A DNA stretch of 64,000 nucleotides. Origin: Candidatus Bathyarchaeota archaeon. Its GTDB lineage: Archaea > Thermoproteota > Bathyarchaeia > Bathyarchaeales > Bathycorpusculaceae. The notes beneath the pieces were generated by a model. That model was given only the letters and a program-made list of their open reading frames with translations. It was not told the origin of the DNA and made no database searches. Of this stretch, positions 22,226 through 42,458 are shown piece after piece. Position 1 is the first letter of the stretch, and each line of letters opens with the position of its first letter. The DNA lies in NCBI GenBank assembly GCA_963828195.1, contig CAWHDT010000003.1, positions 64,001 through 128,000 on the forward strand, written 5' to 3'. Position numbers and translations under genes: made by a program.

Positions 22226-22302
22226 AAATTGACAGATCTGACGGGAACCAATGCTGGACAACCGCATTTTATACTGCAATACCTCGCTTTTTCTTTTGAC
22301 CT

Positions 22303-22597: not shown

Positions 22598-22660
22598 ATA
22601 AAATATTGCAGAGGAAAAGTAGCCGGAAGGAAAAAAATCTTGATTAGGCGGCAGTTGGAT

Positions 22661-22738
22661 TGGCGGGCCCGACGGGAATTGAACCCGCGACCTACGGATT
22701 AAGAGTCCGCCGCTCTAGCCTGACTGAGCCACGGGCCC
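22661..22738 (-). tRNA. tRNA-Lys(CUU), CCA encoded
   Basis: GGGCCCG acceptor stem, anticodon arm GCGGA-CTCTTAA-TCCGT, T-arm GGTTCAATTCC, 3' GCCA. Confidence 0.95.
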
Positions 22739-22858
22739 GCATGGCTTGCTTTTGAAAAAGGTTCCACTGGATAATATAGAGCTTACGGTTGTTGTTGCAG
22801 CTTGATGCAATGAAAAACTAATAACATACCAGCCCCGTAGCTTTAATGGAGAAGTTTT

Positions 22859-23785: not shown

Positions 23786-24464
23786 GCTTCATTAGAATGT
23801 CTGGTTTGTCGCTGGCTATGCCGTCCACGCCTTTCTTCGCGTAATCTTCTGCTTCCTCTGGCGTGTTTATGGTCCAAACGACCACTTTTAAGCAGCATTC
23901 ATGAGCTTTCTCAACGTTAGCGGTGTGGGTGAACCTGTAGAGCGCAAATAGATAGTTGGCTTTTAGCTCCAGCGCTGCCTTAAGCGGATTCTTGTGCTTC
24001 GCATAAATCAAGCCAGTCTCAATATCCATGTTGAGTTCCCTAACTTTCTTTAACGCATCTTCAAGAAAAGAAATGATAACAACATTCTTCTCCAATTTTT
24101 TCGCATGCACTATCGAAAGCACCTGCTCTTCAATGCCCACTTCTTTAAGCTCAACAAACACCTTCACCTTCTTATCCAAAAAATCCAGCGTTTCCTCCAA
24201 AGTCGGAATTTTCTCGCCGTCAGCGGAAAGGTTTTTGATTTCCTTAAGCGTAAGCTCGCTTACCAAGCCTTCGCCGTTGGTTGTCCGCTTAACATCCGCA
24301 TCGTGAATAACGACGATTTGGTTATCTTTAGTTTTTCTAACGTCCAACTCAACCGCGTCCACTCCAATTTCTAATGCCTTCTTAAAACTCGCCAACGTAT
24401 TCTCAGGCGAATAAGCTCTCGCGCCCCTATGACCAATACGTAACATAATAAATTGATTTCTCAA
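23775..24464 (-). CDS. Glycerophosphodiester phosphodiesterase
   Basis: IGHRGA...PENTLASF, ELDV, HD, WTIN, GVDGIASD; start probably 24446. Confidence 0.92.
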   Translation of the reverse strand: MRNQFIMLRIGHRGARAYSPENTLASFKKALEIGVDAVELDVRKTKDNQIVVIHDADVKRTTNGEGLVSELTLKEIKNLSADGEKIPTLEETLDFLDKKVKVFVELKEVGIEEQVLSIVHAKKLEKNVVIISFLEDALKKVRELNMDIETGLIYAKHKNPLKAALELKANYLFALYRFTHTANVEKAHECCLKVVVWTINTPEEAEDYAKKGVDGIASDKPDILMKLNA

Positions 24465-24570
24465 CGAAGAATAATACTTTTTGCAAGTTCCCTCTTTACA
24501 TAACTAAGTAGTTCCAAACCTGATGAAAAAAGTTAAGTGAAGTACACTATATCTTAATTGTGGGATTTCA

Positions 24571-25290
24571 TTGGAATATAAAGGAGAATCCAAAATAGAC
24601 GAGTGCGTGGAATGTTGTGTCAGGGACAATGATTTCTCTAAAAAGAAGGTATTTCTGTGTAATTTTTGTAATAGATGGCTTTGTGAAAAACATATTGAAC
24701 CTAGAGTAGCGTTTATTCCAAATTTTAATCCTACAAACTATCCACCACAGATAAAAGTGTTATATGAACAAGAATACAGACACAAAGGCGGACACCCTGA
24801 TTGGAATTTTAGCCGTAAGAAATTTGAAGACCTTGATATTGAAGAGAAAACACGGAATGAATTGGTAAAACAAGCCTTGGATAGAATGTTGAATCCTGAA
24901 GAGTCTTTTGAAGAGGATACGGATGCAAACAGGCAAAAAAGAATGGTCATGACGCAAGAACGCGAATTTGACGGGAGAATAAGAAAAGAGAACAAAAAAG
25001 AATGTCCCAAAAACGATAGAGAAGATACAGACAAAACTGTGGAAATACCCCTTCAGGAAGAGAGCAACATTATGTGGCATCCAGAAAAGGTATTTGTCGG
25101 ATATACAAAAACAGTTGGTAACATTCATAAATATAATTACATAGTTCCGACAAGAATTTACTATGATGAACAATACCGCAAAAGGCTTGATAAAGCAGAA
25201 ACGTTGGCGGAAGTAGAGCAAATCATTAGAGATTATGATAAGCATCATCGAACAGAACAAGGAGATAAACAGAGTAAGAAACATTGGTGA
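24571..25290 (+). CDS. Hypothetical protein with N-terminal AN1-like Zn finger
   Basis: CVEC...FLCNFCNRWLCEKH; AT-rich. Confidence 0.55.
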   Translation: MEYKGESKIDECVECCVRDNDFSKKKVFLCNFCNRWLCEKHIEPRVAFIPNFNPTNYPPQIKVLYEQEYRHKGGHPDWNFSRKKFEDLDIEEKTRNELVKQALDRMLNPEESFEEDTDANRQKRMVMTQEREFDGRIRKENKKECPKNDREDTDKTVEIPLQEESNIMWHPEKVFVGYTKTVGNIHKYNYIVPTRIYYDEQYRKRLDKAETLAEVEQIIRDYDKHHRTEQGDKQSKKHW

Positions 25291-25402
25291 TGATGGCGAT
25301 TAAACTACTAAGCCAAACAACTTGGCGATGCAAAAACTTAAACCAGTTATCAGAAAATAATTAAGTCCTTGTAGAATGTAAACAGAGAAAGAGGAAATAC
25401 TA

Positions 25403-25867
25403 ATGGTTTACAACCGCAGAAGAGGTACTGCTATAGTCGAGTTTCCCGAAGGCATTTTGGTTGTTAGTCAAGGAAGCGAATCATTTATGCTTGCAGGTGG
25501 CGGGGCGAACAAAGGTGAAAGCCGAAGAAAAGCTGCAATGCGAGAACTTCAAGAAGAAACAGGTTTAAAGCCTTTAGATTCAAAATATTTGTTTTCTTAC
25601 ACAGGTAGACTTCACAAAGACTTTAAGGGCAGAGAGCCTTTTCGAGATAACCACAAGGTCTTTTTAATCAAGGCAGACGGCACTCCTACACCTCAAAGAG
25701 AAATTAAGCGCATAGCATTTTTCAAAGAAGGTTCAGGTCTGAAATTAGTATATTCTACAAAAGAAATCATTGAAAAGTTCTTGGTTATGAAAGGTGAGGG
25801 CTTCAAACCTTTAGTTTGTAAGGAGTGTGGAGGGAAGACTTTTTTTACCTTCACAAAAAACCGATAA
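25403..25867 (+). CDS. NUDIX hydrolase (C-terminal Zn ribbon frameshifted)
   Basis: GGGANKGESRRKAAMRELQEETGL Nudix box; second CxxC lies in another frame ending at 25913. Confidence 0.85.
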   Translation: MVYNRRRGTAIVEFPEGILVVSQGSESFMLAGGGANKGESRRKAAMRELQEETGLKPLDSKYLFSYTGRLHKDFKGREPFRDNHKVFLIKADGTPTPQREIKRIAFFKEGSGLKLVYSTKEIIEKFLVMKGEGFKPLVCKECGGKTFFTFTKNR

Positions 25868-26209
25868 TGCACTCGAATGTGACCATTGTGGAACGACATA
25901 TAAAAAAAGCTGAATTAAAATTAAGCTTCCATCGAAAGTTTTCCTATGGTAAAAAGTCTTAAATCTGCATAGCGTAGAAATAGGGCTGATAGGCTATTTT
26001 TAGCCAATTAAATTGTGTTCTAAAAAATTATAATGACAATTTGTTTTTTAACTTTTTTTAAAAGAAAATTAGCACGTCGGGATAGGGTATCAATTAGCAA
26101 TTGAATTTCTCCGACAAAATTGACCGGTAGAGCGTAATTTTTGCGTGTCTCTATTGACGTGGAGCGGGCAGCTATATTTTTTGAAGGCACTTTTTATACA
26201 AACATGATT

Positions 26210-27040
26210 TTATGCTTCTGCTTTCAGTGTTTTTAGCATGCTTCCCGATCGGAAGCCCTCCAAATCAAATGTCACATATTTGAATCCTAATTTTGTGAGA
26301 TCCTCAGCTACCTTATCCAAAACATCGACGTTACAAAGGAGGTTTCTTTCAGCTTTACCAACCTCTATCCTCGCCAACCCATTATGGTCTCTAACTCGAA
26401 TCTGCTTAACCCCAGTTATTGCCTTTACAGCTTGCTCCGCCTTGTCAATTCTGCTCAGTTTCTCAGCCGTAATTCTCTCGTTAAACGGTATTCTCGAAGC
26501 CAAACACGCTAAAGCAGGCTTGTCATGAACGCTAAGCCCCATTGTTTTGGCTACTTGGCGAATCTCATCCTTGCTAAACTTGTTAATCATCCATGGACTA
26601 TACACGCTTTCTGCTTCCTGAACGGCTTTGAATCCTGGTCGGTGATCGTTTAAATCAGTGAAGTTTGTGCCTTCAAAAACCGCTTTGAACCCCATTTCAT
26701 GTGCGAAGTTGACGAGCGATTGGAGTAGTTCGGTTTTGCAGTAGTAGCAGCGGTTTTCAGGGTTTTTAGCAAAATCTTCGTTGGTTAACTCGTTGGTTTC
26801 AATCACGCATAGTTTGATGCCGATGTCTTCGGCTATTTTTTTGGCGTCTTTCAGTTCTTCCGACGTGTAAGTTGGGCTCTGTGCGATAACAGCTACAGCT
26901 TTTTCGCCGAGAACTTCATGGCTAACAGCAGCCAATGTCGAACTGTCTACGCCTCCGGAAAAAGCAATTACTACTCCGCCTTTTCCTTTTTCTTTGATGA
27001 AGCGTTTGAGCTCTTCAAGCTTGCCGTTTAAATCTTCCAT
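26210..27040 (-). CDS. larE: ATP-dependent sacrificial sulfur transferase
   Basis: AFSGGVDS, NRCYYCK, DHRPG, ACLASRIP, RVRDH, GFRSGSM. Confidence 0.92.
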   Translation of the reverse strand: MEDLNGKLEELKRFIKEKGKGGVVIAFSGGVDSSTLAAVSHEVLGEKAVAVIAQSPTYTSEELKDAKKIAEDIGIKLCVIETNELTNEDFAKNPENRCYYCKTELLQSLVNFAHEMGFKAVFEGTNFTDLNDHRPGFKAVQEAESVYSPWMINKFSKDEIRQVAKTMGLSVHDKPALACLASRIPFNERITAEKLSRIDKAEQAVKAITGVKQIRVRDHNGLARIEVGKAERNLLCNVDVLDKVAEDLTKLGFKYVTFDLEGFRSGSMLKTLKAEA

Positions 27041-27045
27041 TTAGA

Positions 27046-28299
27046 TCACTTTGTTTGGTTGAAAACTTCTTTTGCCCTCGAAATTACGAGCTCCGAAAGC
27101 TCCCTAAGAGGCTTGTTAGTTTTTTCCGCCAACCCTTTAAGGTCATCGTATTCGGGTTTTATGCGGATTATTATTCCATTCCGATTTTTGGAAACTTTAA
27201 CCTTAACTGTTTCTTTAACGTCGCCGATCAGCACGTCAACAAACTGGGTTTCTTGAGTAACAATATGTCGTTCACACAGGTAAACTCTAACTCCCAGCGT
27301 GCCTGTTTCATTAATTAGCACGTCTGAGAGGTGCCCGATGTCTTTTTGGTCAGCAATCACTTTGATAATTTGTCCAGGTCTATTCTTTTTAGTGAACATC
27401 GGGATGACGCTTACGTCTTTAGCGCCTTCCACGAGAAGCCTGTCAACGGTGTGACCTACAATTTCGCCTGACACATCGTCAACGTTGGTTTCCAACACGG
27501 CAATCTGATCCTTTATCAACGAATCTTCTAAAGGTTTACCAACAATTATTCGAAGAACGTTAGGTATTTCAGGAAACTCTTTGCCGCCCGCACCATAACC
27601 GACCTTGACGGGAGCCATTTCAGGGTAAAACCTGCTTACTTCGTCTGCCAAATTAACTATTATTGATGCTCCAGTGGGCGTTGCAAGTTCTGACTCGACT
27701 GGTCCGCCTTTGATCGGGAAATTTTTTGATTGAAAAATAGCCAACGCTGCGGGGGCTGGGCTAGATACGGTGCCATGCGAGAACTGGAACAGCCCTCCGC
27801 CAACGGATACTGGTGACGCAACTATTTTTGCGTTGAAGAAGCCCAGGTCTTCCATGGCAACTGCTGAACCGATAATTTCAGCGGCGGTATCAACTAAACC
27901 GACTTCATGCAGATGAGCATCAGATAAGTGGTGCCCGTGAAGTTTCGATTCTGCATCAACCAACGTATGAATCACATTTGAAGCAAACTGCTTTGCTTTT
28001 ACTGAAAGCTTAAGGTTTTCTGCTGTTTTTTCAACTATTTCGATCAGTTGTTTTCCGTCTTTTCGGGATTTTCCTTCCGCTGTAACATCGACTTTGGTGG
28101 CTCTGAACTCCTTACGCATCACATGTTTGATTTCAACAGCAACATTCTTGTAGCCGTATTCTGCGTTCTCCAGACTTTTTATTGCGGAAGTAACCTTGTT
28201 CACGTCTGCTCCAAGATCCAGAAGAGCGCCAAGCATCATGTCGCCTGAAACTCCAGCGACTTGGCAATCAATCATAACTATTTGGGAAAACTCAGTCAT
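27046..28299 (-). CDS. larC: Nickel-pincer cofactor cyclometallase
   Basis: GVSGDMMLGAL, HLHEVG, PAPA, TPTGA, ETNVDD, KKNRPG, KPEYDD. Confidence 0.92.
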   Translation of the reverse strand: MTEFSQIVMIDCQVAGVSGDMMLGALLDLGADVNKVTSAIKSLENAEYGYKNVAVEIKHVMRKEFRATKVDVTAEGKSRKDGKQLIEIVEKTAENLKLSVKAKQFASNVIHTLVDAESKLHGHHLSDAHLHEVGLVDTAAEIIGSAVAMEDLGFFNAKIVASPVSVGGGLFQFSHGTVSSPAPAALAIFQSKNFPIKGGPVESELATPTGASIIVNLADEVSRFYPEMAPVKVGYGAGGKEFPEIPNVLRIIVGKPLEDSLIKDQIAVLETNVDDVSGEIVGHTVDRLLVEGAKDVSVIPMFTKKNRPGQIIKVIADQKDIGHLSDVLINETGTLGVRVYLCERHIVTQETQFVDVLIGDVKETVKVKVSKNRNGIIIRIKPEYDDLKGLAEKTNKPLRELSELVISRAKEVFNQTK

Positions 28300-28374
28300 T
28301 TTTTTCGACCGCTTGCTAATACTAAAAAGCAAAAACGATATATTGCTTGCGGTTCTTGAGAAAGTGACCCAATC

Positions 28375-29157
28375 ATGTCAACAGTAAAAGAGATTCTTGA
28401 AAAAACCGCGAAAAACGAGTTAACAGTTGAGGAAGCAGAAAAACTGTTACGTATGCTATCAATCGCTGAAGTTGAAGACATAGCAAAAATCGACGCCAAC
28501 AGGGAACACAGAAAAGGCATACCTGAAATAATTCTAGCCGAAAACAAAACAAAAAAAGACCTAGTTGAAATAACTCTTCGGATGCTCAGCGAAAACGGCA
28601 GGGTGATAGTGAGCAGATGCAGCCAAGAACAAGTTCATGCCCTCAACCAAGCGCTGCCTGCCAATGCAACCTGCAATATTAACGAGAAAGCAAGAATGGT
28701 TGTTATAAAAAAGAAAAACCACTCAGTTAAAAGCACGGGTGGAAAGATTGGGCTTTTAACCGCAGGCACCTCGGATATTCCGGTGGCTGAAGAGGCCAAG
28801 GTGATTGCGGAGGAAATGGGCTGCCAAGTTTACACGTCGTATGATTTGGGTGTAGCAGGGATCCACAGGGTTATGCAGCCTCTGAAAGATTTGATAATGA
28901 AGGACGTTGACGTTATTGTCGTGGTTGCAGGCAGGGAAGGCGCTTTGTCCTCAGTGGTCGCCGGCATGGTCAATGTACCCGTGATTGCGGTTCCAACCTC
29001 CAACAGCTACGGTTTCGGCGAAAAAGGCGTAAGCACCCTGATGGCTATGCTTCAGTCTTGTTCACTGGGTTTGGCGGTGGTAAACATCGACGCGGGGGTT
29101 GCCGCTGGCGCTGTAGCAACGTTGATCGCGAATCGCGCCGCAAAATTCAGAAGCTGA
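28375..29157 (+). CDS. larB: NPN cofactor biosynthesis carboxylase/hydrolase
   Basis: TAGTSDIPVAEEA, DLGVAGIHR, AGREGAL, PTSNSYG, VVNID. Confidence 0.92.
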   Translation: MSTVKEILEKTAKNELTVEEAEKLLRMLSIAEVEDIAKIDANREHRKGIPEIILAENKTKKDLVEITLRMLSENGRVIVSRCSQEQVHALNQALPANATCNINEKARMVVIKKKNHSVKSTGGKIGLLTAGTSDIPVAEEAKVIAEEMGCQVYTSYDLGVAGIHRVMQPLKDLIMKDVDVIVVVAGREGALSSVVAGMVNVPVIAVPTSNSYGFGEKGVSTLMAMLQSCSLGLAVVNIDAGVAAGAVATLIANRAAKFRS

Positions 29158-29252
29158 AGACATTTTTCTTTTTAGTAAACGTTAGTCAAGCTTATTGGCG
29201 ATCAGTAGAATGCTTAAATAGTGTTTGAGTCTACTCAGAAACGAGGGTTTTC

Positions 29253-29717
29253 ATGGAGAATAGTCAAGACGAAATCTTGTTGAACCCGATAGGCACCGTC
29301 AAAACCGAAGCTGTCGGCGATGAAGTTAAAGATAAATCCAGAATATGCCAGATTATTATCCGTGAGGAATTTGCTGCAGCTTTAGATGGGGTTGATGGTT
29401 TTTCGCATCTGTTTGTGCTATTTTGGCTCAACAAAGTTTCCGGCAAGCAACGAATGACTTTGAAGGTTCATCCCAGAGGCAGAATGGATATGCCTTTGCT
29501 TGGAGTTTTCGCAACCCGAACCAACATTCGACCCAACCCCATAGGCTTAACCCTTGTTGAGTTGTTAAATGTTGAAGGCGACACTTTGACTGTTCGCGGA
29601 TTGGACGCTTTCGACGGCACACCCGTCTTGGATATCAAGCCTTTTGATTCATGGGACACCGCGGAGAAGGCACGTGTTCCTGACTGGTGGATTAAACTAA
29701 ACATGGAAAAACGTTGA
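29253..29717 (+). CDS. tsaA: tRNA m6t6A37 methyltransferase TrmO/TsaA family
   Basis: GVFATR...RPNPIGLT, GLDAFDGTPVLDIKP. Confidence 0.9.
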   Translation: MENSQDEILLNPIGTVKTEAVGDEVKDKSRICQIIIREEFAAALDGVDGFSHLFVLFWLNKVSGKQRMTLKVHPRGRMDMPLLGVFATRTNIRPNPIGLTLVELLNVEGDTLTVRGLDAFDGTPVLDIKPFDSWDTAEKARVPDWWIKLNMEKR

Positions 29718-29719
29718 TG

Positions 29720-30220
29720 CTACAGCAATTCTTGGATTCCGTATTTTGTGTTAAGTATTTTTAGCATTTCTGTTCTGAGCTCTTCTCCTTTTAGGCCCGT
29801 CGCTTTAACGCCGCCAATTTCTTTTGCAAGCTCTGGCTCTTTGTAAGCTTCTTTTAGCCAGTTTTCAAAGTCGCCTCTGTAGAGGTGAAATTCCAGCGAA
29901 CCTGCATTGATTTGCTGTATTGCCAAGTAAAACTCCCGTAGCGTGTTGGCTTTGAATTCTGAAGGTTGATTGACACCAAAGTAAAAGTGAAAACTCATTC
30001 CGATAGGAACAGCTGTGAGGGCTTTAAGAGCCTCTTTCCCTTTTTCTGAGACACTAAATCCTCTTTCGTTTCTCTGCAGAAAACCTTCTTTTGCCAACTC
30101 TTGGAACTGCTGTATAGTTTCGGTAGGAGTTAAATTTGCTTTTTTAGCAAACATATTCAAATCCATGCGGCCTGTCGCTTCGCTCATTGTTTTTAAAACT
30201 TTAAACTGCTGCTCTTTCAA
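29720..30220 (-). CDS. wHTH + DUF5752-like protein
   Basis: N-terminal wHTH; FHFY...A.TL.EF...SLEFHLYRGDFENWL. Confidence 0.7.
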   Translation of the reverse strand: MKEQQFKVLKTMSEATGRMDLNMFAKKANLTPTETIQQFQELAKEGFLQRNERGFSVSEKGKEALKALTAVPIGMSFHFYFGVNQPSEFKANTLREFYLAIQQINAGSLEFHLYRGDFENWLKEAYKEPELAKEIGGVKATGLKGEELRTEMLKILNTKYGIQELL

Positions 30221-30404
30221 ACGGCTTCCCTCAACGCCTATTATTGTCTAAACGGAAATTTAAACATCTTAACCATCTAAATAAGCAATTTCCCCGAAAA
30301 GGCAAAACACAGCTAAGCCAGTTCACTTCGCAAAACAAAAACGGCGTTTTCTCTCTGAAGCTTGTTTTTTAAGCGTAAGAGTCTTATGTTTTGTTGTCCA
30401 CTTG

Positions 30405-30475
30405 GTGTTTCGGATGATGAGCACTAGAGTCTGAGCTTAAGCAGTGAGATGGACTCGACGGGCGAACTGACACTT
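30405..30475 (+). ncRNA. Putative C/D box sRNA
   Basis: Box C ATGATGA (30414-30420), 10-nt spacer, D' CTGA (30431-30434), D CTGA (30467-30470); C' box is degenerate. Confidence 0.5.
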
Positions 30476-30552
30476 TCAAGCGGAAAACTTATCTGTGAAG
30501 CAGTTATGGAAATGTACGCTGCAGGCAAGTTATTAGGCTGACTTGAACCGAG

Positions 30553-30846
30553 GTGAATATGAAAATGGTTGAAATGAAAGTCGATACTTCCGAACTTAAA
30601 GGCGACGAAGCCAAATTAATCGAGAAACTAGCGGATTTCCTCAAGGAGAAAACAGGCGGGGAAGTAGTAACAGGCGATAAAATCTTAACGGTGAAAGGCG
30701 AAGGCGAGGGACTCAGCAAAAAATACGTACGCATAACATTGAAAAAGTTCCTCTACAAGTATGCGCTTACAGAGTCTTTCAGAGTAATAGGCAACGAAGA
30801 GAACACGCTTAAAATAAAACAGAGAAAACTTGAAGAAGAAGATTAA
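30553..30846 (+). CDS. rpl22e: Ribosomal protein eL22-like
   Basis: LADFLKEK, SKKYVRITLKKFLYK and FRVI motifs, acidic EEED tail. Confidence 0.75.
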   Translation: MNMKMVEMKVDTSELKGDEAKLIEKLADFLKEKTGGEVVTGDKILTVKGEGEGLSKKYVRITLKKFLYKYALTESFRVIGNEENTLKIKQRKLEEED

Positions 30847-30997
30847 CCAGTCCTTTTTTTCCAAATTTAATTAATTCTTTATTTTTGCCATCAAACAAAC
30901 CATGCCCGCCTGCTGTCTATTTTCTGAACAGAATGTTCCACAGCTTAGCATTAAATCAAAAAGGCGCTAACTATGCATTGAGCAGGAGAGACTCAAG

Positions 30998-31171
30998 TTG
31001 CGCCACAAAAAAATAGCTGCCAGTGCGGTAGTTACAGTTTCAACAATAGCCTTTTTGGGGTTGACTGGGGAAACGGGCATAGCACTTCGAGGCGTGGACC
31101 CAGTAGCTGTAATTGCAGCCGTGGCAGTTGCGGTTATAGGTATAGTCTGGTTCAAAAAAACAGTTAGTTAA
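30998..31171 (+). CDS. Small two-TM protein (57 aa, not in ORF track)
   Basis: MRHKKIAASAVVTVSTIAFLGLTG...VAVIAAVAVAVIGIVWFKKTVS; AGGAG RBS upstream of TTG. Confidence 0.5.
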   Translation: MRHKKIAASAVVTVSTIAFLGLTGETGIALRGVDPVAVIAAVAVAVIGIVWFKKTVS

Positions 31172-31213
31172 AACGGCTTGTGGCTAAGCCTTGGCTGTGA
31201 TGAAACAAGAAAA

Positions 31214-33406
31214 CTAGATTTTTAACTTCTTATAAATGTGGAGAAATACTTTTTCGCCTTCGGGCACTGGTTCTTTGAACTTGACTGAGACTTCGCTTGG
31301 TGACAGTGAAGTCCTGATTTCGCCTGTAACTCCTGATGAAGTAAGGACTTTTTCGCCCATGAATTTGGAGGCAGCTTCCGAGGTGCCGAAGAGACCGTTC
31401 ACTGAGTACTCGTTGGCTTCACTTTTCTGTCCAACGGTTCCTTGCTTGGTCTTTTTTGAATAGAACTCTAATTTGCTGTCTGTTTCAGTGATTCTTCCTC
31501 CACCTATTATTCGGAATTCTCGGGCTTGGAGTCCAGGGTTCATCAAGAGAACGTGGTCTCCCCTTTCAGCCACGACCTGCTGCCTGAGTTCTATGTAAAC
31601 TAAGCATTTTTCAGGAGCCTTCACCTGGGTTTTCACGACGAACTTGCCGTCTTCCATGACTCCGGGCACAATGTTTCCCAGCACTTCATAAGACCCAACA
31701 AACACGTCTACATCGCTATACAGTGTCAACGGACGCAGATAGTACTTGTCCACTTCTAACTCGATTACCACACTGCGGGTCGAACTGATGGAGCCAGGAG
31801 AAACGGCTACATAACCCCTGTGAGCGTCAGCAGGTTTCAGGTCTTTGACGGCAACGCCCACTCTGTCTCCAGCGATAGCTTCCTCTTTGTCCTCCCCGAA
31901 GGACCGCAGCGAACGTACTTGACCTTTTTTGTCGATGGGTTTGATTTCAACAACATCTTTCACCTTAACTTTCCCACGGTGTACCGTGCCAGTCAAGACG
32001 GTTCCTACTCCGGCTATGGTGAATGCGTGGTCGATAGGCATCTTGAACGGACCATTCCATTGGCGAATAGGCGGACTGATTGAATCCTGCAGTGCCTTCT
32101 TGAGGTCGTCAATTCCCTTACCTGTTAAGGCTGAGACCTCCACAATCTTTGCCTTCTCATAGGGCGTTCCCCTCAGAAGAAGCTGGATTTTCTGCTTGAC
32201 CTCCTCAATTCTCTCACGGGAAGCCAAATCAACCTTGTTTAGGGCGACTACAAGATTTTTTATTCCGACGTCTTTGATTATTGCGAAATGCTCCACACTT
32301 TGAACCTGAAGACCAAGATCAGCAGCCACAACCAGCACCGCTGCGTCAATTATGTTAGCGCCTGCCACTGCATGCCTAACCAGGCTGAAGTGCCCTGGCA
32401 AATCAACAAGAGTAGCCAGATAGGGACCTAACGTGAAAGCGGAGAAGCCCATGTCCAGCGTCATCCCCCGCCGGGCAGCGTCTGGCGCCTTGTCCAGAGC
32501 AGCCGTCGAAGGTTTTTCAGTAAGCTGGATAGCGAGCATTGTTTTGCCGTGGTCAACATGCCCGAAAAGACCAACATGAACTGGGATAAGTCCTTTGCCT
32601 TCAGTCATGGTGTAACTTTTTGCGACTGCGTTTGCTTCTCTGAGGAATAATTCCACCGCATCAACAGACTTCAACCCGTCTGCCAGCGCCTTGTGCACCA
32701 CTTCTTTTCTGATTACTGAAAGAGAAATGCCTAAGTCCGGGTTCTTGTACCGAGTCATAACCTCCATCATGGCTTTTCGGGTTTCCCTCTCGATTCCCCT
32801 TGCCCTAAGTGATTTCTCGTCTTCCACAACTTTTTTGGGCTTGGACCTGATTGGCGCTTCAAGCCTTTTGAGAACCGCGGCAACGATGGTGTTGGCGATC
32901 TCTTCGATGCTTTGCTTGCTTGGATCGACTACGGCGAGTGGTGTGTCCCATTTGTAATCGCCCTTGGGCGGGTCAAGTTTCTGGTTGATTTCCTCAATGA
33001 GAGACTGCGGTATGGGCGATCCTCGTTCGTGGTTCCATTTAGTAGCTACCTCAATGGGCGTATCAACATAGACTATGTCGTAGTCAGAGCCTGCTCGTTT
33101 GGCAATCTGCCTCAGCTCGCTCCTCATCGACTTGTAGTAGTTTAAGTCATCGCTGATGACGAGAAAACCATTCTCCAAACCAGTTGCAATCGCCTTCTCA
33201 TAAAGAGCCTTCACCGACGCTTCCCGTTCAGGTTTGAATCCTTTGGAGGAGTACGAGAGCATCTCCCGAAAATCGTCCGAGCTGACAACCATGGTCGATA
33301 TCCCATGTTTGTCCTCAAGCAGGGAAGCGACGTTTTTGCTGATGGTGGACTTTCCCGAAGAGGGCAATCCGCACATTATAAGCAGGTAAGGATAACTCTG
33401 AGACAC
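31214..33406 (-). CDS. pstK-selB: PSTK (O-phosphoseryl-tRNA(Sec) kinase) - SelB (Sec-specific elongation factor) fusion
   Basis: N-terminus GLPSSGKST, DDLNYYKSMR, PP...YKWDTP; C-terminus GHVDHGKT, RGMTLDMGFSAF, DLPGH, NKVD, DHAF...GTVLTG and short archaeal-type domain IV; probable GTG start at 33406. Confidence 0.92.
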   Translation of the reverse strand: MSQSYPYLLIMCGLPSSGKSTISKNVASLLEDKHGISTMVVSSDDFREMLSYSSKGFKPEREASVKALYEKAIATGLENGFLVISDDLNYYKSMRSELRQIAKRAGSDYDIVYVDTPIEVATKWNHERGSPIPQSLIEEINQKLDPPKGDYKWDTPLAVVDPSKQSIEEIANTIVAAVLKRLEAPIRSKPKKVVEDEKSLRARGIERETRKAMMEVMTRYKNPDLGISLSVIRKEVVHKALADGLKSVDAVELFLREANAVAKSYTMTEGKGLIPVHVGLFGHVDHGKTMLAIQLTEKPSTAALDKAPDAARRGMTLDMGFSAFTLGPYLATLVDLPGHFSLVRHAVAGANIIDAAVLVVAADLGLQVQSVEHFAIIKDVGIKNLVVALNKVDLASRERIEEVKQKIQLLLRGTPYEKAKIVEVSALTGKGIDDLKKALQDSISPPIRQWNGPFKMPIDHAFTIAGVGTVLTGTVHRGKVKVKDVVEIKPIDKKGQVRSLRSFGEDKEEAIAGDRVGVAVKDLKPADAHRGYVAVSPGSISSTRSVVIELEVDKYYLRPLTLYSDVDVFVGSYEVLGNIVPGVMEDGKFVVKTQVKAPEKCLVYIELRQQVVAERGDHVLLMNPGLQAREFRIIGGGRITETDSKLEFYSKKTKQGTVGQKSEANEYSVNGLFGTSEAASKFMGEKVLTSSGVTGEIRTSLSPSEVSVKFKEPVPEGEKVFLHIYKKLKI

Positions 33407-33615
33407 CGTTTTCCCCAATTGTCTAACCCATCTTGGGTTTATAATTCTGCCGAACGTCAGACTTGATGATTTCAAGTCGCTTAGCTAGTTTGGGCTAAGA
33501 ACATCAAAAATCACATTAAGCAACGCCATCTTAACGGCTTGCAGTATGAAGACCGGACCGTTGCAACGATATTAGCGCGGAGCGCAAAGTGTAGACACAA
33601 GCACATTTTAAGAGT

Positions 33616-34197
33616 TCATTTTGAGTTGGTCGGCTGATAGGTTGCTACTATAACTCCCTTGTCAGTCGTCTTGGAGCTAACGAGCTTCAATGAAGTGAAA
33701 GGAACACCGTCGGCAAAAAGACGACGCCCTTCTCCCAGAACCAGCGGATGAATTAAAAGAACATACTCGTCTATCAGATTGCTATGCATTATTGACCGTA
33801 TCAACCCGCCGCTGCCCATTATTACAAGATCCTTTTCTAGCTCTTTCTTCAGCTTAAAAAGCGTCTCTTCAACGTCGCCATTAATCAGCGTGGAATTTTT
33901 CCATGGCAAAGGTTGCTTTAACGTTCTGGATACGACATACTTTTGCGTGTTATCCATATATGATGAGTAAGGGCTATCTGTTCGCTTGGGCCAGACTTTA
34001 AAAAAGCCCTCATAAGTCGTTCGGCCAAGCAGCAAACCGCCTGCATTAGCCATTGCCTCTCCTGCTGAAGGCATGGCTGCATACGGCGCACCCCATCCGC
34101 CACGTGTAAAGCCACCACGAGTATCCTCGTCAGGTCGCGCCGGCGCCTGCATAACCCCATCTAAAGTCAAATTCATGAATACAATGATTTTACCCAT
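33616..34197 (-). CDS. RibD C-terminal/dihydrofolate reductase-like protein
   Basis: TLDGVMQAP, LLGRTTY, GSG.L, LIDEY.L.IHP.VLG.G.RLF. Confidence 0.9.
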   Translation of the reverse strand: MGKIIVFMNLTLDGVMQAPARPDEDTRGGFTRGGWGAPYAAMPSAGEAMANAGGLLLGRTTYEGFFKVWPKRTDSPYSSYMDNTQKYVVSRTLKQPLPWKNSTLINGDVEETLFKLKKELEKDLVIMGSGGLIRSIMHSNLIDEYVLLIHPLVLGEGRRLFADGVPFTSLKLVSSKTTDKGVIVATYQPTNSK

Positions 34198-34199
34198 TC

Positions 34200-34590
34200 T
34201 TAGAAAGCTCCAGCAGCATTAGGCATATTCGGCAGTATCTGTTGTGTAATATCCCAGTACTCGACGATTTTATCGCCTTTGATGCTGGTATAAGTGAACC
34301 TGCCTCAACCCTCCTTCGCCGGGTTTAGATTTGGAGTTCAGAAATTCAGTGTGCGCTGCGACCAAGTCTCCGTCAACAAGGACATTTTTGACGAAAAATC
34401 CAGGTTCCATGTTCTGTGTATTTAGACCTTTACTTGCTGCAATCTGGGCATCGACCAAGTTTTCTATGCTTCCAGAAGTGAATGGATTATGTGTTTTACA
34501 GTCAGGCGCGAAAAAGCGTAAGCCTTCCTTGAACTTTCCCGAGCCTACTAATTTAAAATACTCTGCAACAATTTTTTTACGGTCTTCCAT
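34200..34590 (-). pseudogene. SnoaL/NTF2-like protein, frameshifted
   Basis: Removing one base near 34286 restores ...VHLYRIKGDKIVEYWDITQQILPNMPNAAGAF*, ending 2 nt before the next ATG. Confidence 0.7.
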
Positions 34591-34884: not shown

Positions 34885-35493
34885 TTGAGGAAAATTATTG
34901 TTTTGTCGTTTATAACGCTCGATGGCGTCATGCAGGCGCCGGGTGGTCAAACGGAGGATACAAGCGGCGGCTTCAAGTACGGCGGCTGGGCATTTCCGCA
35001 TTTTGATGATTTTCTGGGTAAGGTTATGAGTGATCAAATGGGGCATCCTTTTGATCTATTGCTCGGTCGAAAGACCTACGACATCTGGGCCGACTATTGG
35101 CCCATGCACAATGACGAAAGGGACCCTGTTGGTTCGGGCATTAACAAAGCGACAAAGTTCGTGGCTTCGCATTCGCCTGTAAAATCCAGCTGGCCCACTA
35201 CTGTGCAATTACAGGGAGATGTTGCTGAAGCAGTTAAGAAGTTGAAACATCAAGATGGGCCTGAACTTCAAGTTCACGGAAGCGGCAACCTTATTCAGAT
35301 GCTCTTGAAAGAGGATTTGGTCGATGAGATGTGGCTAAAGATTTTTCCGATAACGCTCGGTTCAGGAAAACGCTTGTTTGCCGAAGGCACAATGCCTGCA
35401 GCATTTACTCTTATGGAATCCAGAACCTCGCCGAAGGGAGTAATCATAGCTTCTTACAGGCGAAGCGGAAAAGTGGAAACAGGATCGTTTTGA
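34885..35493 (+). CDS. RibD C-terminal/dihydrofolate reductase-like protein
   Basis: TLDGVMQAPG, LLGRKTY, HGSGNL, LVDE, GSGKRLF. Confidence 0.9.
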   Translation: MRKIIVLSFITLDGVMQAPGGQTEDTSGGFKYGGWAFPHFDDFLGKVMSDQMGHPFDLLLGRKTYDIWADYWPMHNDERDPVGSGINKATKFVASHSPVKSSWPTTVQLQGDVAEAVKKLKHQDGPELQVHGSGNLIQMLLKEDLVDEMWLKIFPITLGSGKRLFAEGTMPAAFTLMESRTSPKGVIIASYRRSGKVETGSF

Positions 35494-35614: not shown

Positions 35615-36928
35615 GTGTTGCCGTTTGATAAGTTGAAGGCCACAATCCCCAAGAGCATACTTGACAGAGGCTTAACAGTGTTAGGCACGGAGTCAGAGCC
35701 GATAAAACTGCTTTTCGAGCAAAGACGTGTGCCCCAAGAAGGCTGGAAAGACAGCCAAATCGAAGAACTGCTGAATTTGCTGGCTACGATGGATTCTGAC
35801 AAGGACAGCAAAGCAGTTTTTCTTGGCGAAAGAGAGGGCAGGGTTGCGTCCCCAGCAGTTTCAAAGTTGGCAGCTGCATTTCACCATGGGGTAGGAAGGT
35901 CAGGCGACCTCACCGAAGCCCAGCCTAAAGCGGCAGGCGCGTCTCTGATGTATTTCTTCGCTAACAAATTGGCAACTGACGCCCTGAAAAGGTTCGGTGC
36001 GCCAAACATCAAGAAGGCAGTGGTTTTTCCTGTGGCAACGGGAATGACGCTTGCTCTTGCCTTATGCGCCGCAAGAAACCAAACTGGGGGAAAAGAGGTT
36101 GTTTACCCGCAGATTGACCTCAAGACTCCTTTGAAGGCGATTCGTCTTGCTGGCCTTCAAGAAAGAATAGTTGCAGGAGAAGTCTACGGAGACGCAGTAA
36201 ACGTTCCCACAGAAGAGATAGAAAAAGCAGTTAACGAAAATACTGCCGCGATTCTGTCAACAACCACGTTCTTTGCTCCCAGAGAACCCGATAAGATCAA
36301 AGAAATCGCAAAAATCGCGGAGGAGAAAAAAGTACCGCATATCATAAACAACGCGTTTGGAGTGCAGAGCCGCGAGATCATGAAGCTGGTGAGAGGCGCA
36401 GTTGACGCGGGACGCGTAGACGCCATAGTGCAGAGCACAGACAAGAATTTCCTCACCCCGGTCGGGGGAGCAATAGTCGCTTCGCCAAACGAAGAATTCT
36501 TAGACGCCGTTTCTGAAACCTATGCGGGGAGAGCAACAGCCGCGCCCATAGCGCAGTTCTTGGCAGCCGTGCTGTCGATTGGGCTGGAAGGCTACGAGAA
36601 GCTGAGAACCCAGCAAGAAGAGAACCGAAAGTTCCTTGAATCAGCCTTGAAGGAAGTTGCAGAGAGGCATTCGCAGCGTATACTGAATGTTTATAATCCG
36701 ATATCCGTGGCTATGACGCTGGATGGATTGGACGCCAAGAAAATAGGCAAAGCCTTGTACGCGGCAAGAGTCAACGGTGCAAGAGCGCTGGAGAAAAATG
36801 ATTTCGGAGTATGCTGCCCACAGTATGTCTCATCCTACATTAACTTTGACGCCAGCATAGGAATACAAAAAAACGAAATCACCCTGGCGGCAGAGAGGTT
36901 AGACAAGGTTTTGGAAACAGTGGCGTAG
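35615..36928 (+). CDS. spcS: O-phosphoseryl-tRNA(Sec) selenium transferase (SepSecS)
   Basis: GEREGRV, HGVGRSGDL..QPKAAG, PVATGM, HIINNAFG, GRVDAIVQSTDKNF (PLP lysine). Confidence 0.95.
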   Translation: MLPFDKLKATIPKSILDRGLTVLGTESEPIKLLFEQRRVPQEGWKDSQIEELLNLLATMDSDKDSKAVFLGEREGRVASPAVSKLAAAFHHGVGRSGDLTEAQPKAAGASLMYFFANKLATDALKRFGAPNIKKAVVFPVATGMTLALALCAARNQTGGKEVVYPQIDLKTPLKAIRLAGLQERIVAGEVYGDAVNVPTEEIEKAVNENTAAILSTTTFFAPREPDKIKEIAKIAEEKKVPHIINNAFGVQSREIMKLVRGAVDAGRVDAIVQSTDKNFLTPVGGAIVASPNEEFLDAVSETYAGRATAAPIAQFLAAVLSIGLEGYEKLRTQQEENRKFLESALKEVAERHSQRILNVYNPISVAMTLDGLDAKKIGKALYAARVNGARALEKNDFGVCCPQYVSSYINFDASIGIQKNEITLAAERLDKVLETVA

Positions 36929-37018
36929 TGGCGGCGTCCAAGGGGAATCGGACCCCGAGACCTTGCGGGCTCATCGGATTTGAAGTCCGATGCTAGGACC
37001 ACCTAGCCGTGGGACGCC
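36929..37018 (-). tRNA. selC: tRNA-Sec (anticodon UCA), 9/4 fold, CCA encoded
   Basis: GGCGTCCCA-CG-GCTAGG TGGT CCTAGC-ATCGGA CTTCAAA TCCGAT-GAGCCC GCAA GGTCTC-GGGG TCCGATT CCCC-TTGGACGCC-GCCA; AT-rich TATA-like box ~30 nt upstream. Confidence 0.95.
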
Positions 37019-39082: not shown

Positions 39083-39526
39083 ATGGCGAATTTGTTTAAA
39101 ATCTCAAAATACGCTGTGGCTCTTTTAGTAGCTGGCGGGCTCGCCTGGTTTATTGCAGGATTGTTCTTTGGCGGATCCGTTGCGATCTCTTATTTTTCAA
39201 CCGGTTCTCTCGCGAAGGCGGGCATTGCAACCCCTGGCTACCCAGCCAATGCAGTGCGCCAGATGGCCTGGGATCAATTTTACATCAACCTCTATTCCGC
39301 TGTAATCGGGTTGTTCGCAATCATGATTGGACTGACGGCGTTCAGACGAGCGGAGAAATGGGCGTGGTATGCAACATTGGTCTTGGTCATAAATGGGGTG
39401 ATTACAAGCGTCTTTGATTATTTGAGTTGGGGCGGTTGGTACACCATATTCATTACTTCTTTGCCGGCGCTTCTTGCTTTGTTGTTCTCTGCCAAAAGCT
39501 TCTTCCCAGATGCGCGTCAAACATGA
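39083..39526 (+). CDS. Membrane protein
   Basis: Four TM helices, AFRR.EKWAW motif. Confidence 0.7.
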   Translation: MANLFKISKYAVALLVAGGLAWFIAGLFFGGSVAISYFSTGSLAKAGIATPGYPANAVRQMAWDQFYINLYSAVIGLFAIMIGLTAFRRAEKWAWYATLVLVINGVITSVFDYLSWGGWYTIFITSLPALLALLFSAKSFFPDARQT

Positions 39527-39912
39527 AACCGATTGGCGGTCAATTACAAAATTAGGACACACATTCACGCTCGTAGGGCAAGTGGCAAGCCCCAGCCGCC
39601 ATCGTGCCGCACTTAATCGAACGAAATCGCCTTGGCGGCAGAGCCCGTTTGGTGCTTGGTTATGGGGCTGCAACGTATTTTGGGGAGCCGTCGGCAATTC
39701 AGGTATAAACCGATTGATACCTGCTTTTCTTGCTGCTTTTTATTTTCTGCACGGGGAACAGAAAAGCTTCAGCTTGATTTGGGTTCTGAACCAAAAAACC
39801 AGCTTAAATCAACCCTGACAAGATTAAGCCTACCCTAAGAGGATCTCTAGTATTTGCATCAAAATTCCAACGCAAATATGGGTTGAAAAACGAAAAAGAA
39901 GAAAGGGTTGGT

Positions 39913-39942
39913 TTCGTCCTCCCGCGACGGCTCAAGAACGAA
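39913..39942 (-). promoter_or_regulatory. Candidate archaeal SECIS element in the hdrA-mvhD 3' UTR
   Basis: TTCGTTCTT-GAG-CCG-TCG-CGG-GAGGACGAA hairpin 8 nt after the TAG stop, followed by a U-rich tract. Confidence 0.55.
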
Positions 39943-39950
39943 TTCTTCGC

Positions 39951-42458
39951 CTACTTTGCTGCGGGTTGAGGGACGGGTTTAACCACAGGGGCTGGGGCTG
40001 CTGCTTTGCGTTTGAGCATGTTCTCTAAGGTTGGTTGAAGCTTTGCGTTTTCCGCTTGTATCTTTTCTTTTCCCAGTGCCTCCATCTGCTCGTTCATTTC
40101 CTTGACGATACTGACGAATTTCTCTCCTTCAGCTGATGAAACATAATCAACCCTGAATCTTTCTTTGCTCAATCCAAGCTTTGTCAGCATTCCAGCTAAG
40201 GCATCCATGCGCGCTTTCATCCTGATGTTTCCTGAGATGTAGTGGCAGTCGCTGGGAAGATGGCAGGCGGTTATCAGTACCCCTGCGGCTCCCAGCCTAA
40301 ATGCTTCCATAACGAAGTCCCGATCTACCCGCCCAGTGCACATTACCCTTATCGCCCTTGTAGTAGGAGGGTATTCCAGCCGGCTCGTCCCCGCTCGGTC
40401 CGCGCCGGCGTAACCTCACCAGTTACACATAAACGTCAGTATCTTATCCTCGGGTTTGTTTTCTAAAGCAGCTCTGATTTGCGAGGTTATTTGTTCATCT
40501 GTAAAGTGCATCTGACTTATGGCGTCTTGTGGGCATTCAGCAACGCAGGTTCCGCATCCGTGGCATTGGGCTGCATTTATCTGGGCTGGTTGTCCCTCAG
40601 CCGCGGTTATGGCTCCGAAGGGACAGCTTTTCACGCAGACCCCGCATTTTGCCTTCACGTTTCTGCATTTGGCGATGTCTACTATTGAGACAATTGGCTC
40701 TATCTTCCATTTCGGCTGCGAAAGGATGGTTGCAGCTCTCGCCGCCGCGCCGCTTCCTTGCGCTACGCTGTAGGGTATGTCCTTTGGTCCCTGGCAAGCA
40801 CCTGCTAGGAATACTCCGTCCATAGGTGTGTCCATTGGTTTGAGCTTCGGGTGGCTTTCCATGAAGAACCCGTCTGATCCACGCGTTATGTGCAGGATGC
40901 TGGCCAATTCTTCGGCTCCTTTGCTGGGTATGGCGGCGGTGCTTAGCACAACAAGTTCGGCTTCGACTTCGATGGGTTGTCCAAGCGTCGAGTCCTCTGC
41001 TCGGATAGTCAAGTTTTTGGTTTTTGGGTCTTCCATTATTTGGGACGGTTTTCCCCTGATGAAGATGATTCCCATTTCACGGGCTCTTCGGTAGAATTCT
41101 TCGTAGCCTTTGGAGGGAGTGCGTATATCTATGTAGAAAAGGTAGACTTCCACTTCGTTATGGTAGTGTTCTTTGAGAAGGATGGCTTCTTTTAGCCCAT
41201 ACATGCAGCAGAAACCTGAACAGTACTCGTACTTCTTTACGTCTCTTGAGCCGACGCATTGGATGATGGCAACGCTTTTCGGTCTCTTTCCATCGGATGA
41301 GCGGACTACGTGTCCAGCTGTCGGGCCGCCTGCTGTAATGAGTCTCTCAAACTCCAGAGCTGTAATTACGTTATCGTATTTTCCATAGCCATACCTTGGA
41401 TCGTCATATGGTAGATAAATGTCGCAGCCTGTTGTTGCTATGATTGCTCCAACTTCCAACTCAACTTCTTCTGGCTTTTGATTAAAGTTGATGGCTTCAC
41501 GCGCGCCGCAGGCATCCACGCATTTGAAGCACTCTATGCAGTAATCCCTGTTTATCGAGTAGATAAGAGGCACTGCCTGATCAAACGGAATGGAGATGGC
41601 TTTTCTCACGCCTAAGTTCATATCCCACTCATTGGGGTATTCTATTGGGCAGGCGTCTTTGCATTCTCCGCAGCCAGTACATTTGTCGGCCATAACATAT
41701 TTCGGGTTTTTGCGAACTTTAACTCTGAAGTTGCCTACAAACCCCTCTACTTTGAGGATGTCCGCATTGGTTATTACTTGGACCTTAGGATGGCGCAGTA
41801 CTTCCACCATCCTAGGTCCTTCAATTCATATGCTGCAATCCAAAGTTGGAAAAGTCTTGTCGAGCTGTGCCATGTGTCCTCCTATGCTTGTGTTCTTCTC
41901 GACAAGGTATACTTGGAACCCCATATTAGCCAGATCCAGAGCGGAGTTGATGCCGGCAATGCCGCCGCCGATAACCAAGGCGTTTTTGGTTACAGGGACA
42001 TCCATGGGTTCAAGAGGCTTAAGCAGCCTCGCCTTGGCCACCGCCATCTTTATGGTATCTTTTGCTTTTGCTGTGGCTTCTTTTGGATTACTGGGATGGC
42101 ACCACGAAGCGAACTCACGTATGTTCGCCATTTCAAACACATAGGGATTTAGCCCTGCTTCACTTACGGTTTTCCTAAATGTTGGCTCATGCATCCTTGG
42201 GCTGCAAGCGGCTACGACGACACGGTTCAATCTGTGTTCTTTTATTGCTTTTCTGATTTCTTCTTGTCCCGGGTCAGCGCAGGTGTAGCGGTTTTCTTTA
42301 ACGTAGACTACGTCAGGTATAGTTTTTGCGTACTCGGCGACTGAAGGCACGTCCACGGTTCCTGCGATGTTCATGCCGCAGTGGCAGACGAAAACGCCAA
42401 TCCGTAGCTCTTCTGATTTTTGGGTTTCAGTTTGTTTTTGGGTTTCTGGGCTGCTCAT
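39951..42458 (-). CDS. hdrA-mvhD: HdrA-MvhD fusion selenoprotein (835 aa, Sec at codons 211 and 681)
   Basis: Three ORF-track pieces share one frame, separated only by TGA at 41826-41828 ([16 protein letters not shown]) and 40416-40418 ([22 protein letters not shown]); GGGIAG FAD motif, ferredoxin motifs, MvhD MCTGRVD and DCHY. Confidence 0.93.

Follow-up and report, generated by a model that had tools for sequence, protein, structure and literature searches.

A predicted bifunctional PSTK-SelB protein in the selenocysteine system of a bathyarchaeon

Introduction

Why would an archaeon make, as one polypeptide, a kinase that acts early on the tRNA for selenocysteine (Sec) and the elongation factor that acts on it last? 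The question is raised by a gene found at 31214..33406, on the minus strand, of a 64,000-nucleotide stretch of DNA (the window; contig CAWHDT010000003.1, positions 64,001 to 128,000) from a Candidatus Bathyarchaeota archaeon. The source genome, referred to below as G000, is 2.83 Mb long, lies in 9 contigs, and is 96% complete. The gene joins a kinase of the PSTK type to an archaeal SelB (aSelB). These are, of course, separate proteins in the systems that have been characterized experimentally (Methanocaldococcus jannaschii PSTK, Methanococcus maripaludis SelB, and the human proteins), as the original prediction, made from the letters of the window, had correctly stated. We consider it highly probable that the gene encodes a bifunctional PSTK-aSelB protein belonging to a complete archaeal Sec system, and to the class of fusions described by Mukai et al. 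(2022).

That class makes the fusion less novel than was first implied. PSTK and aSelB were reported in one open reading frame (ORF) in “diverse Bathyarchaeota and one Archaeoglobus” in Frontiers in Genetics (Mukai et al., 2022; PMC8762117), where a typical Bathyarchaeota Sec gene cluster is also shown, and the fusion is mentioned again in a review of the same year (PMC9499178). The review credits “Mukai et al. 2017,” a paper whose mBio text has 0 occurrences of PSTK or SelB; the source is the Frontiers in Genetics paper. No further primary description of the fusion turned up in literature searches. Because it was described in print in 2022, the fusion is counted here as known; the analysis confirms that the protein belongs to that class. 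What is new is its exact co-occurrence with SepSecS, a tree that places the fused kinases on a single branch, a junction conserved in length, and the near-absence of SepRS and SepCysS from the genomes that carry it.

One frame from kinase to elongation factor

The gene runs without a stop or frameshift from a GTG start (33404..33406) to a stop codon at 31214..31216, and encodes 730 amino acids. This is the uninterrupted frame of about 730 residues that had been predicted, with the strand, previously unstated, now given; all features of the gene listed below lie on the same minus strand. In the list of ORFs the open frame is longer (31214..33475, minus strand; 753 amino acids counted from an upstream TTG). 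The gene was set at 31214..33406 because the GTG column is kept in homologs (it is common to 7 of 13, G000 included) and because GGGG, a Shine-Dalgarno-like element read from the sequence and presumably functional, lies 7-10 nucleotides 5' of the GTG (33413..33416). An internal ATG start (MCGLPSSGKST) would remove the first beta-strand that aligns to M. jannaschii PSTK. Every motif that had been quoted for the two halves is present in the frame: for the kinase, GLPSSGKST (residues 13-21), DDLNYYKSMR (86-95), and YKWDTP (151-156); for SelB, GHVDHGKT (282-289), GMTLDMGF (314-321), and NKVD (390-393).

The N-terminal half

The N-terminal half divides as PSTK does. A kinase domain (residues 1-185; 32852..33406) was delimited by phmmer alignment to the M. 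jannaschii PSTK structure 3adb and by the secondary structure of an AlphaFold2 (AF2) model. It is followed by a helical, predicted tRNA-binding domain (residues 197-262; 32621..32818), delimited by alignment to 3adb and 3a4l and by the AF2 helices. When the first 290 residues were searched with phmmer against the PDB, M. jannaschii PSTK came first (3adb, 107.5 bits, E 7.1e-30; 3a4l, 106 bits), and the next matches were adenosine-5'-phosphosulfate kinases at no more than 33 bits. The alignment to 3adb pairs query residues 6-250 with residues 11-245 of a chain of 259, covering both PSTK domains, and the 3adb and 3a4l alignments extend to chain residues 245-248 of 259-260, well into the C-terminal domain. 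A tRNA-binding domain at the C-terminus, common to PSTK and Kti12 only, was taken here as a mark of membership; in PSTK this domain is reported to bind the tRNA D-arm (PMC9499178). Among profile models, the archaeal PSTK model of NCBIfam (TIGR03574) is the top kinase model, at 153.1 bits (E 8.6e-45), and Pfam KTI12 matches at E 5.8e-37 over residues 31-243 of the 753-residue frame.

The active site of PSTK has been described as a P-loop, GxP(G/A)xGK(S/T), a Walker-B aspartate (D41), and a motif 116-RNxxR-121, in M. jannaschii numbering (Sherrer et al., 2008; PMC2275090). In that enzyme the R120A replacement is dead, and R116A was reported only to weaken complementation (PMC2275090). Here, the P-loop as defined in that paper occupies G13-T21 (33344..33370), with G13, P15, G18, and K19 at least 90% conserved in 39 aligned fusion proteins. 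D44, conserved to the same degree, aligns with the aspartate of the M. jannaschii segment GSDLIRE. The position of RNxxR is occupied by WNHER (residues 124-128; 33023..33037), where all 39 proteins agree at W124, N125, and R128. The distal arginine, essential in M. jannaschii, is thereby kept. Tryptophan 124 could take over adenine stacking from the proximal arginine, because in related kinases it is that arginine that packs against the adenine ring (PMC2275090). From its family, the N-terminal module is predicted to phosphorylate Ser-tRNA-Sec.

The C-terminal half

Residues 274-730 (31217..32587) form an archaeal SelB, with a G domain followed by domains II, III, and IV. The half scores 276.3 bits with the selB model of NCBIfam (TIGR00475), above the cut-off of 242.25, and the fusion falls far under the cut-offs for EF-1alpha (115.9 bits, cut-off 540.1) and aIF2-gamma (139.1 bits, cut-off 514.5). 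Pfam finds GTP_EFTU (2.3e-32), GTP_EFTU_D2 (1.4e-12), and aSelB_III (4.6e-06; 27.1 bits against a cut-off of 19), together with a weak eEFSec_4th match (19.1 bits, under its cut-off of 27). M. maripaludis SelB (4ac9) is matched by phmmer at 245.5 bits, with query residues 276-723 aligned to residues 20-476 of a chain of 482. Foldseek likewise ranks M. maripaludis SelB first (4ac9/4acb; target-normalised TM 0.76-0.84), ahead of human eEFSec. This coverage of the chain and this fold extend through domains II, III, and IV.

The five GTPase motifs, G1 to G5, are all present, as GHVDHGKT, RRGMTLD, DLPGH, NKVD, and SAL. Among the 39 sequences, no variation is seen at H283, G287, K288, T289, P337, G338, and K391, and conservation is 90% or more at H339 and D393. 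The C-terminal GTPase module is predicted, again from its family, to bind Sec-tRNA-Sec. Domain searches and structure matches thus agree with the claim made at the outset, that a PSTK stands in a single polypeptide with a complete archaeal SelB; the kinase is of the PSTK type and not a Kti12.

The junction between the halves

An AF2 model built from 39 homologs (mean predicted local distance difference test, or pLDDT, 85.5) gives the following layout: kinase at residues 1-185, disorder at 187-194, three helices within 197-262, a linker at 263-273, and SelB from 274 onward. The helices of the PSTK C-terminal domain are at 197-220, 223-243, and 247-262. Two linkers therefore flank that domain. 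The one toward the kinase (residues 186-196; 32819..32851) appears flexible, with pLDDT below 50 at 187-194 and a mean majority fraction per alignment column of 0.35. The one toward SelB, the junction itself, has 11 residues (263-273; 32588..32620) with no regular secondary structure in the model; it falls inside the interval, 32550-32650, where it had been placed beforehand.

Across this junction, F254 and H277 are spaced by 20-23 residues, and by 22 in 32 of the 39 sequences. Mean column conservation is 0.36 in the junction linker, against 0.60-0.73 in the domains on either side of it, PSTK C-terminal and SelB G. As judged from these alignments, the length of the junction is conserved and its sequence is not, and the constraint on the two halves is comparable. 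When SelB (274-730) and PSTK (1-262) were offered to complex prediction as separate chains, the median score of the one prediction was 0.49, against 0.42 for an unrelated control, which weighs neither for nor against contact between the modules.

The selenocysteine system of the genome

The fusion is the genome's only candidate for PSTK and for SelB. It is the sole SelB over the cut-off in the whole genome (278.2 bits, the next best match scoring 123.9), and it is the single match in the genome to the PSTK model; other KTI12 matches score 24.5 and 19.1 bits. The gene for SepSecS (O-phosphoseryl-tRNA(Sec) selenium transferase) is at 35615..36928 on the plus strand, its start codon approximate (TIGR03531, 482 bits against 224.85; Pfam SepSecS, 1.7e-117). 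Next to it, at 36933..37018 on the minus strand, is tRNA-Sec with anticodon UCA, found by ARAGORN and scoring 65.8 bits with Rfam RF01852 against a gathering score of 47. These two genes are 2.2-3.6 kb from the fusion. SelD is on another contig (G000:C7:117717-118580; 232.8 bits).

A user of this machinery is also in the window. The gene at 39951..42458, on the minus strand, encodes a fused HdrA-MvhD/FlpD protein and is interrupted by in-frame TGA codons at 41826..41828 and 40416..40418. With TGA read as selenocysteine (U) it is one frame, with U211 and U681 in the contexts LDCSIUIEG and FMCNWU, and its pieces match Pfam FlpD, Fer4, and FAD-binding families. Read in this way, HdrA-MvhD is a double selenoprotein that uses the Sec machinery.

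The tRNA-Sec has acceptor and T arms of 9/4, a D stem of 6 bp with a loop of 4 nucleotides, and a C-U mismatch at the eighth acceptor pair. The D stem of archaeal tRNA-Sec is usually 7 bp, according to the review (PMC9499178). The eighth pair varies among carriers of the fusion: it is C-U in G000, U-U in G413 and G259, and A-U in G075. A “U6-U67 mismatch” has been reported for wetland Bathyarchaeota, and the mismatch seen here is probably its equivalent, if the two numbering schemes agree, as we infer.

Between the fusion and SepSecS are a RibD_C-like gene (33616..34197, minus strand), a SnoaL-like ORF (34270..34590, minus strand), and a second RibD_C-like gene (34885..35493, plus strand). In another carrier, G217, the fusion and SepSecS are only about 0.8 kb apart.

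Distribution and origin of the fusion

The original prediction had called for a survey of homologs with the same architecture. Two samples were searched, one of the class and one of the order, each of 401 genomes. Full-length or nearly full-length fusions are found in 13 of the 401 class genomes, and SepSecS exceeds its cut-off in the same 13. In the other 388, neither was found. Nothing argues more strongly for a PSTK as the N-terminal module than this exact match in occurrence. The order sample holds 22 carriers, 11 of them beyond the 13 of the class sample, for 24 in all. Twenty-one of these have the gene at approximately full length in one frame; in G575 it ends at the end of a contig; and in G262 and G610 it is interrupted by stops, all within the SelB part. 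G262 (C14:57121-59306) has one TAA near residue 546, and G610 (C6:3-2155) has one TGA and one TAA. Such interruptions mean either that the Sec trait is decaying or that the sequences contain errors. At the level of the genus the fusion is patchy: of 88 genomes sampled, 7 have it, in addition to G000.

Other parts of the Sec system accompany the fusion. In 11 of the 13 class-sample carriers tRNA-Sec reaches the Rfam gathering score, and in the other two weaker matches stand beside Sec genes. SelD exceeds its cut-off in 12 of the 13. In four genomes from distant lineages (G136, G039, G075, and G250), the SepSecS frame starts no more than 17 nucleotides from the fusion's stop codon, on the same strand. 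As an aside, the SelD gene has one in-frame TGA in 6 of the 12 carriers (G075, G039, G247, G259, G413, and G136); the remaining 6, among them G000, lack it, so that Sec and non-Sec forms of SelD alternate between close relatives.

Public sequence collections give the same architecture. The public homologs are labeled Candidatus Bathyarchaeota or Bathyarchaeia, and of the best 120 of 701 public protein clusters (E<=1e-30), 118 contain both PF08433 and PF00009. The two exceptions are proteins of 413-419 amino acids on contigs of 1.5-1.8 kb. Identity among collinear homologs is 40-92%. When the PSTK module alone was used in a whole-library HMMER search, seven fused proteins of 704-737 amino acids and one 189-residue fragment ranked first, followed by standalone proteins of approximately 250-270 amino acids.

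When 57 PSTK modules were placed in a quick maximum-likelihood tree, the 16 fused ones fell on one side of a branch with an SH-like approximate likelihood-ratio (SH-aLRT) support of 99. This tree is unrooted and supported by SH-aLRT only; the near-copies G387, G217, G401, and G247 were left out, and its standalone rows are P0129-P0170 of 230-330 amino acids plus G036, without Kti12 or a named methanococcal PSTK. The set nearest to the fused modules in this unrooted tree includes standalone proteins labeled Freyarchaeota and Helarchaeota. Placement of the fused modules on one branch is consistent with a single fusion event, and these sequences probably share a single origin.

Several relatives depart from the simple picture. 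G413, of the same genus, has two fusion genes. Its copy b (L039:1501-3696, minus strand, where L039 is G413:C1:2825866-2831052) is 53% identical and has degraded GTPase motifs: GHCKHGKT, a lost switch-I threonine, EMPGN for DLPGH, and SKID for NKVD. It lies 77 nucleotides downstream of a second tRNA-Sec(UCA) gene (L039:3773-3858, minus strand), and may be a GTPase-impaired paralog with its own tRNA. G036, of the same order, has a standalone PSTK-like gene of 256 amino acids (L008, G036:C39, 1370..2140, plus strand) with a KWNRER motif, followed by an unrelated ORF. SepSecS and SelB were not found in G036, a genome 86% complete, and the gene is either an orphan PSTK homolog or the product of an incomplete bin.

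A 44-residue match in G016, 84% identical, was considered as a relic of a lost fusion and set aside; it sits at the extreme end of contig C10, collinear with 22067..31350 of the window, and a contig break explains it equally well. SepSecS and SelB were not found elsewhere in G016. In four Sec-minus genomes of the genus, DNA for the fusion, SepSecS, and tRNA-Sec is missing, and a homolog of the HdrA region is present. Borders of a Sec island could not be drawn by synteny with these four, which are 66-79% identical and have their genes in too different an order. A locus search using a 13-sequence alignment was also dropped as a survey of architecture. It seeded on the universal GHVDHGKT motif and returned 80 loci, all bacterial and matching the SelB/EF-Tu part only.

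Is the protein a PSTK-SelB?

Several observations weigh against a PSTK-aSelB protein at work in a Sec system. The score with the archaeal PSTK model (153.1 bits, or 156.3 in the genome search) is under the curated equivalog cut-off of 290.5, and therefore membership by that rule fails. The proximal arginine of RNxxR is an invariant tryptophan throughout the fusion family. The AF2 model has a predicted TM score (pTM) of 0.65, which does not fix how the modules are placed with respect to each other. SepSecS is divergently oriented from the fusion in G000, 2.2 kb off, and belongs to a separate operon. Last, a Sec insertion sequence (SECIS) was not recognized 3' of HdrA-MvhD, where 83 nucleotides fold like shuffled sequences (z 0.14), and Rfam returned nothing at E<=1 within 39400..40000, the 3' region of that gene.

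The score and the tryptophan, together with the name KTI12 carried by the matching Pfam family, would suit an N-terminal module that is a Kti12-like tRNA-modification ATPase, or some other P-loop kinase, and not a PSTK. Kti12 structures are available in the PDB. The closest solved relatives are nonetheless the M. jannaschii PSTKs, and none of the 20 PDB matches to the first 290 residues at E<=0.001 is named Kti12. Further, the archaeal PSTK model outscores the eukaryotic one (73.3 bits), the module co-occurs exactly with SepSecS, and a genome with SepSecS, tRNA-Sec, and TGA-containing genes offers no other candidate for PSTK. Kti12, moreover, is described as restricted to eukaryotes (PMC2275090). 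The Kti12 alternative is therefore most improbable. One might suppose instead that the fusion was created by assembly or sequencing, with a stop or frameshift missed at the junction. The chance of this is negligible because 24 independently assembled genomes show the frame in the same collinear form, its junction free of stops, and because both domains are found in the 118 public clusters noted above, which come from several sources. Even the disrupted copies, G262 and G610, are broken inside SelB and not at the junction.

Why are the two proteins fused?

If the halves do what their families do, the pathway would run as follows. SerRS would load serine onto tRNA-Sec. The N-terminal module would phosphorylate the product, giving Sep-tRNA-Sec (Sep, O-phosphoserine). 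SepSecS, with selenophosphate from SelD, would convert this to Sec-tRNA-Sec, which the C-terminal GTPase module would bind and bring to UGA codons, for example the two in HdrA-MvhD. The fusion would at least fix a 1:1 supply of the first and the last of the factors specific to tRNA-Sec.

The explanation in print is a different one. Mukai et al. (2022) propose that the fusion stands in for a missing SepCysE adapter and shields Sep-tRNA-Sec from SepCysS, so that cysteine is not inserted at Sec codons. As stated in that paper, the rationale applies to archaea with both Sep-tRNA pathways, their co-occurrence being explicit for one Archaeoglobus (PMC8762117). One carrier, G587, fits it, with SepRS (477.1 bits) and SepCysS (553.5 bits) adjacent and tRNA-Cys nearby. 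The cassette (L136; G587:C11:15500-23500) consists of SepRS (minus strand), a 64-residue ORF, SepCysS (plus strand), a 208-residue fragment, and tRNA-Cys(GCA). The 64-residue ORF, directly 5' of SepCysS and a possible SepCysSn, has no Pfam or NCBIfam family match, and the 208-residue fragment matches the C-terminal part of CysRS only. G587 overturned our own earlier statement, made from the class sample (0 of 13), that no carrier has SepRS or SepCysS. After widening, SepRS and SepCysS both exceed their cut-offs in 1 of 24 carriers (0 of 13 in the class sample, 1 of 11 further); these carriers include non-independent relatives, seven of the 24 are under 90% complete, and the counts, taken in a search that did not include SepCysE, carry no statistical claim. 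SepRS itself shows no enrichment in carriers: it occurs in 41 of the 401 class genomes, all 41 among the 388 non-carriers.

G000 shares the architecture of the published class, one ORF with PSTK first, and departs from its context. As far as SepRS and SepCysS are concerned (SepCysE being outside the search), it is not a host of that pathway: its best scores are 47.2 bits for SepRS (cut-off 380.65) and 41.1 for SepCysS (cut-off 365.25), and it has a normal CysRS (503.2 bits). Because no SepCysS is encoded, shielding from it is refuted as the present-day reason for the fusion in G000, barring a SepCysS in the unassembled 4%. Both halves remain conserved without SepCysS, and as a general explanation shielding is very unlikely. 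Since the fusion is kept in many genomes without SepRS or SepCysS, the only explanation in print is weakened; it is removed for most carriers, and tethering and dosage remain as live hypotheses. Insulation from SepCysS may matter in lineages where the systems coexist, or may have mattered at the origin.

The main rival to tethering holds that the fusion is neutral or purely regulatory: adjacent, co-transcribed genes lost a stop codon, leaving two independent enzymes that gain only equal dosage. Suitable neighbors exist, for in Sifarchaeia the PSTK and aSelB ORFs are reported to be separated only by a stop codon (PMC8762117), and the nearest relatives of the fused kinases are standalone PSTKs of Asgard-labeled archaea. 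The unconserved linker sequence and the lack of a fixed geometry between modules, implied by the pTM, also suit two enzymes that ignore each other. Such an account must meet the facts that the fused state is found in all 13 SepSecS-bearing genomes of the class sample, that it persists among proteins as little as 40% identical, most of them with a linker of constant length, and that reversion to separate genes was not seen among SepSecS-bearing genomes. A neutral ratchet is compatible with all of these facts. We give this account a probability not far short of even.

Our preferred reading, held tentatively and well aware that it could easily be wrong, is that tethering is the reason for the fusion. 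The PSTK C-terminal domain, placed between a flexible linker and a short linker of fixed length, could tether tRNA-Sec beside SelB, and the product of SepSecS would then be captured in cis by the tethered SelB. Channeling of tRNA-Sec of this kind is compatible with the short, length-conserved linker and with the position of SepSecS directly downstream in four distant lineages. A bolder form, which we think unlikely, would make the fusion the obligatory Sec form in Bathyarchaeia, a scaffold dedicated to tRNA-Sec and not a device against crosstalk. Here, the PSTK C-terminal domain would hold on to the D arm throughout phosphorylation and the SepSecS step, up to capture in cis by SelB on its fixed-length linker, and the kinase module would travel with SelB to the ribosome. 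If true, this would be the covalent counterpart of the proposed PSTK-SepSecS-tRNA-Sec complex, and physical cooperation between unfused PSTK and SelB/EFSec would be expected in eukaryotes and in other archaea.

Among sampled SepSecS-bearing Bathyarchaeia, only the fused form was seen, and a natural covalent PSTK-SelB is a handle on the passage of tRNA-Sec between PSTK, SepSecS, and the elongation factor in archaea and eukaryotes.

Other features of the window

At 26210..29157, Pfam identifies adjacent genes for an NAD_synthase/PP-loop protein (26210..27040), a Ni_insertion protein (27046..28332), and an AIR carboxylase (28375..29157), a trio that we take to resemble the LarE/LarC/LarB set for the nickel-pincer cofactor. 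An ORF of 1901 amino acids (44366..50071, plus strand) lies downstream of the Hdr-like cluster.

Comparison with known systems

The protein itself is no different from the fusion of Mukai et al. (2022): the architecture is the same, with PSTK N-terminal and aSelB C-terminal in one ORF under the same taxon label, and the Sec genes, SepSecS and tRNA-Sec among them, form a cluster of the type shown in that paper (PMC8762117). What differs from their rationale is the context, as G000 and 23 of 24 carriers are without SepRS or SepCysS. In Sifarchaeia, the same paper reports PSTK and aSelB adjacent and in the same order, as two ORFs there in place of one here.

Compared with its separate counterparts, each half is largely conventional. 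Both domains of M. jannaschii PSTK (3adb, 3a4l) can be aligned, and the P-loop, Walker-B aspartate, and distal arginine are held in common; that enzyme, however, is a standalone protein of 259 amino acids with RNxxR in place of the WNxxR that is invariant in the fusion family. The four-domain layout and GTPase motifs are those of M. maripaludis aSelB (4ac9, 4aca, 4acb; the TM values are those given above) and of human eEFSec (5izk-5izm; fold TM 0.66-0.68). The aSelB and eEFSec proteins have a free N-terminus, whereas the G domain of the fusion is preceded by 273 residues of PSTK and linker.

The transsulfursome (SepRS-SepCysE-SepCysS) and the transamidosome, in which a scaffold is described as retaining misacylated tRNA (PMC8762117), offer a functional analogy only. 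Those assemblies are non-covalent and join consecutive steps. In the fusion the link is a covalent one, between steps 2 and 4 of the pathway, with SepSecS skipped.

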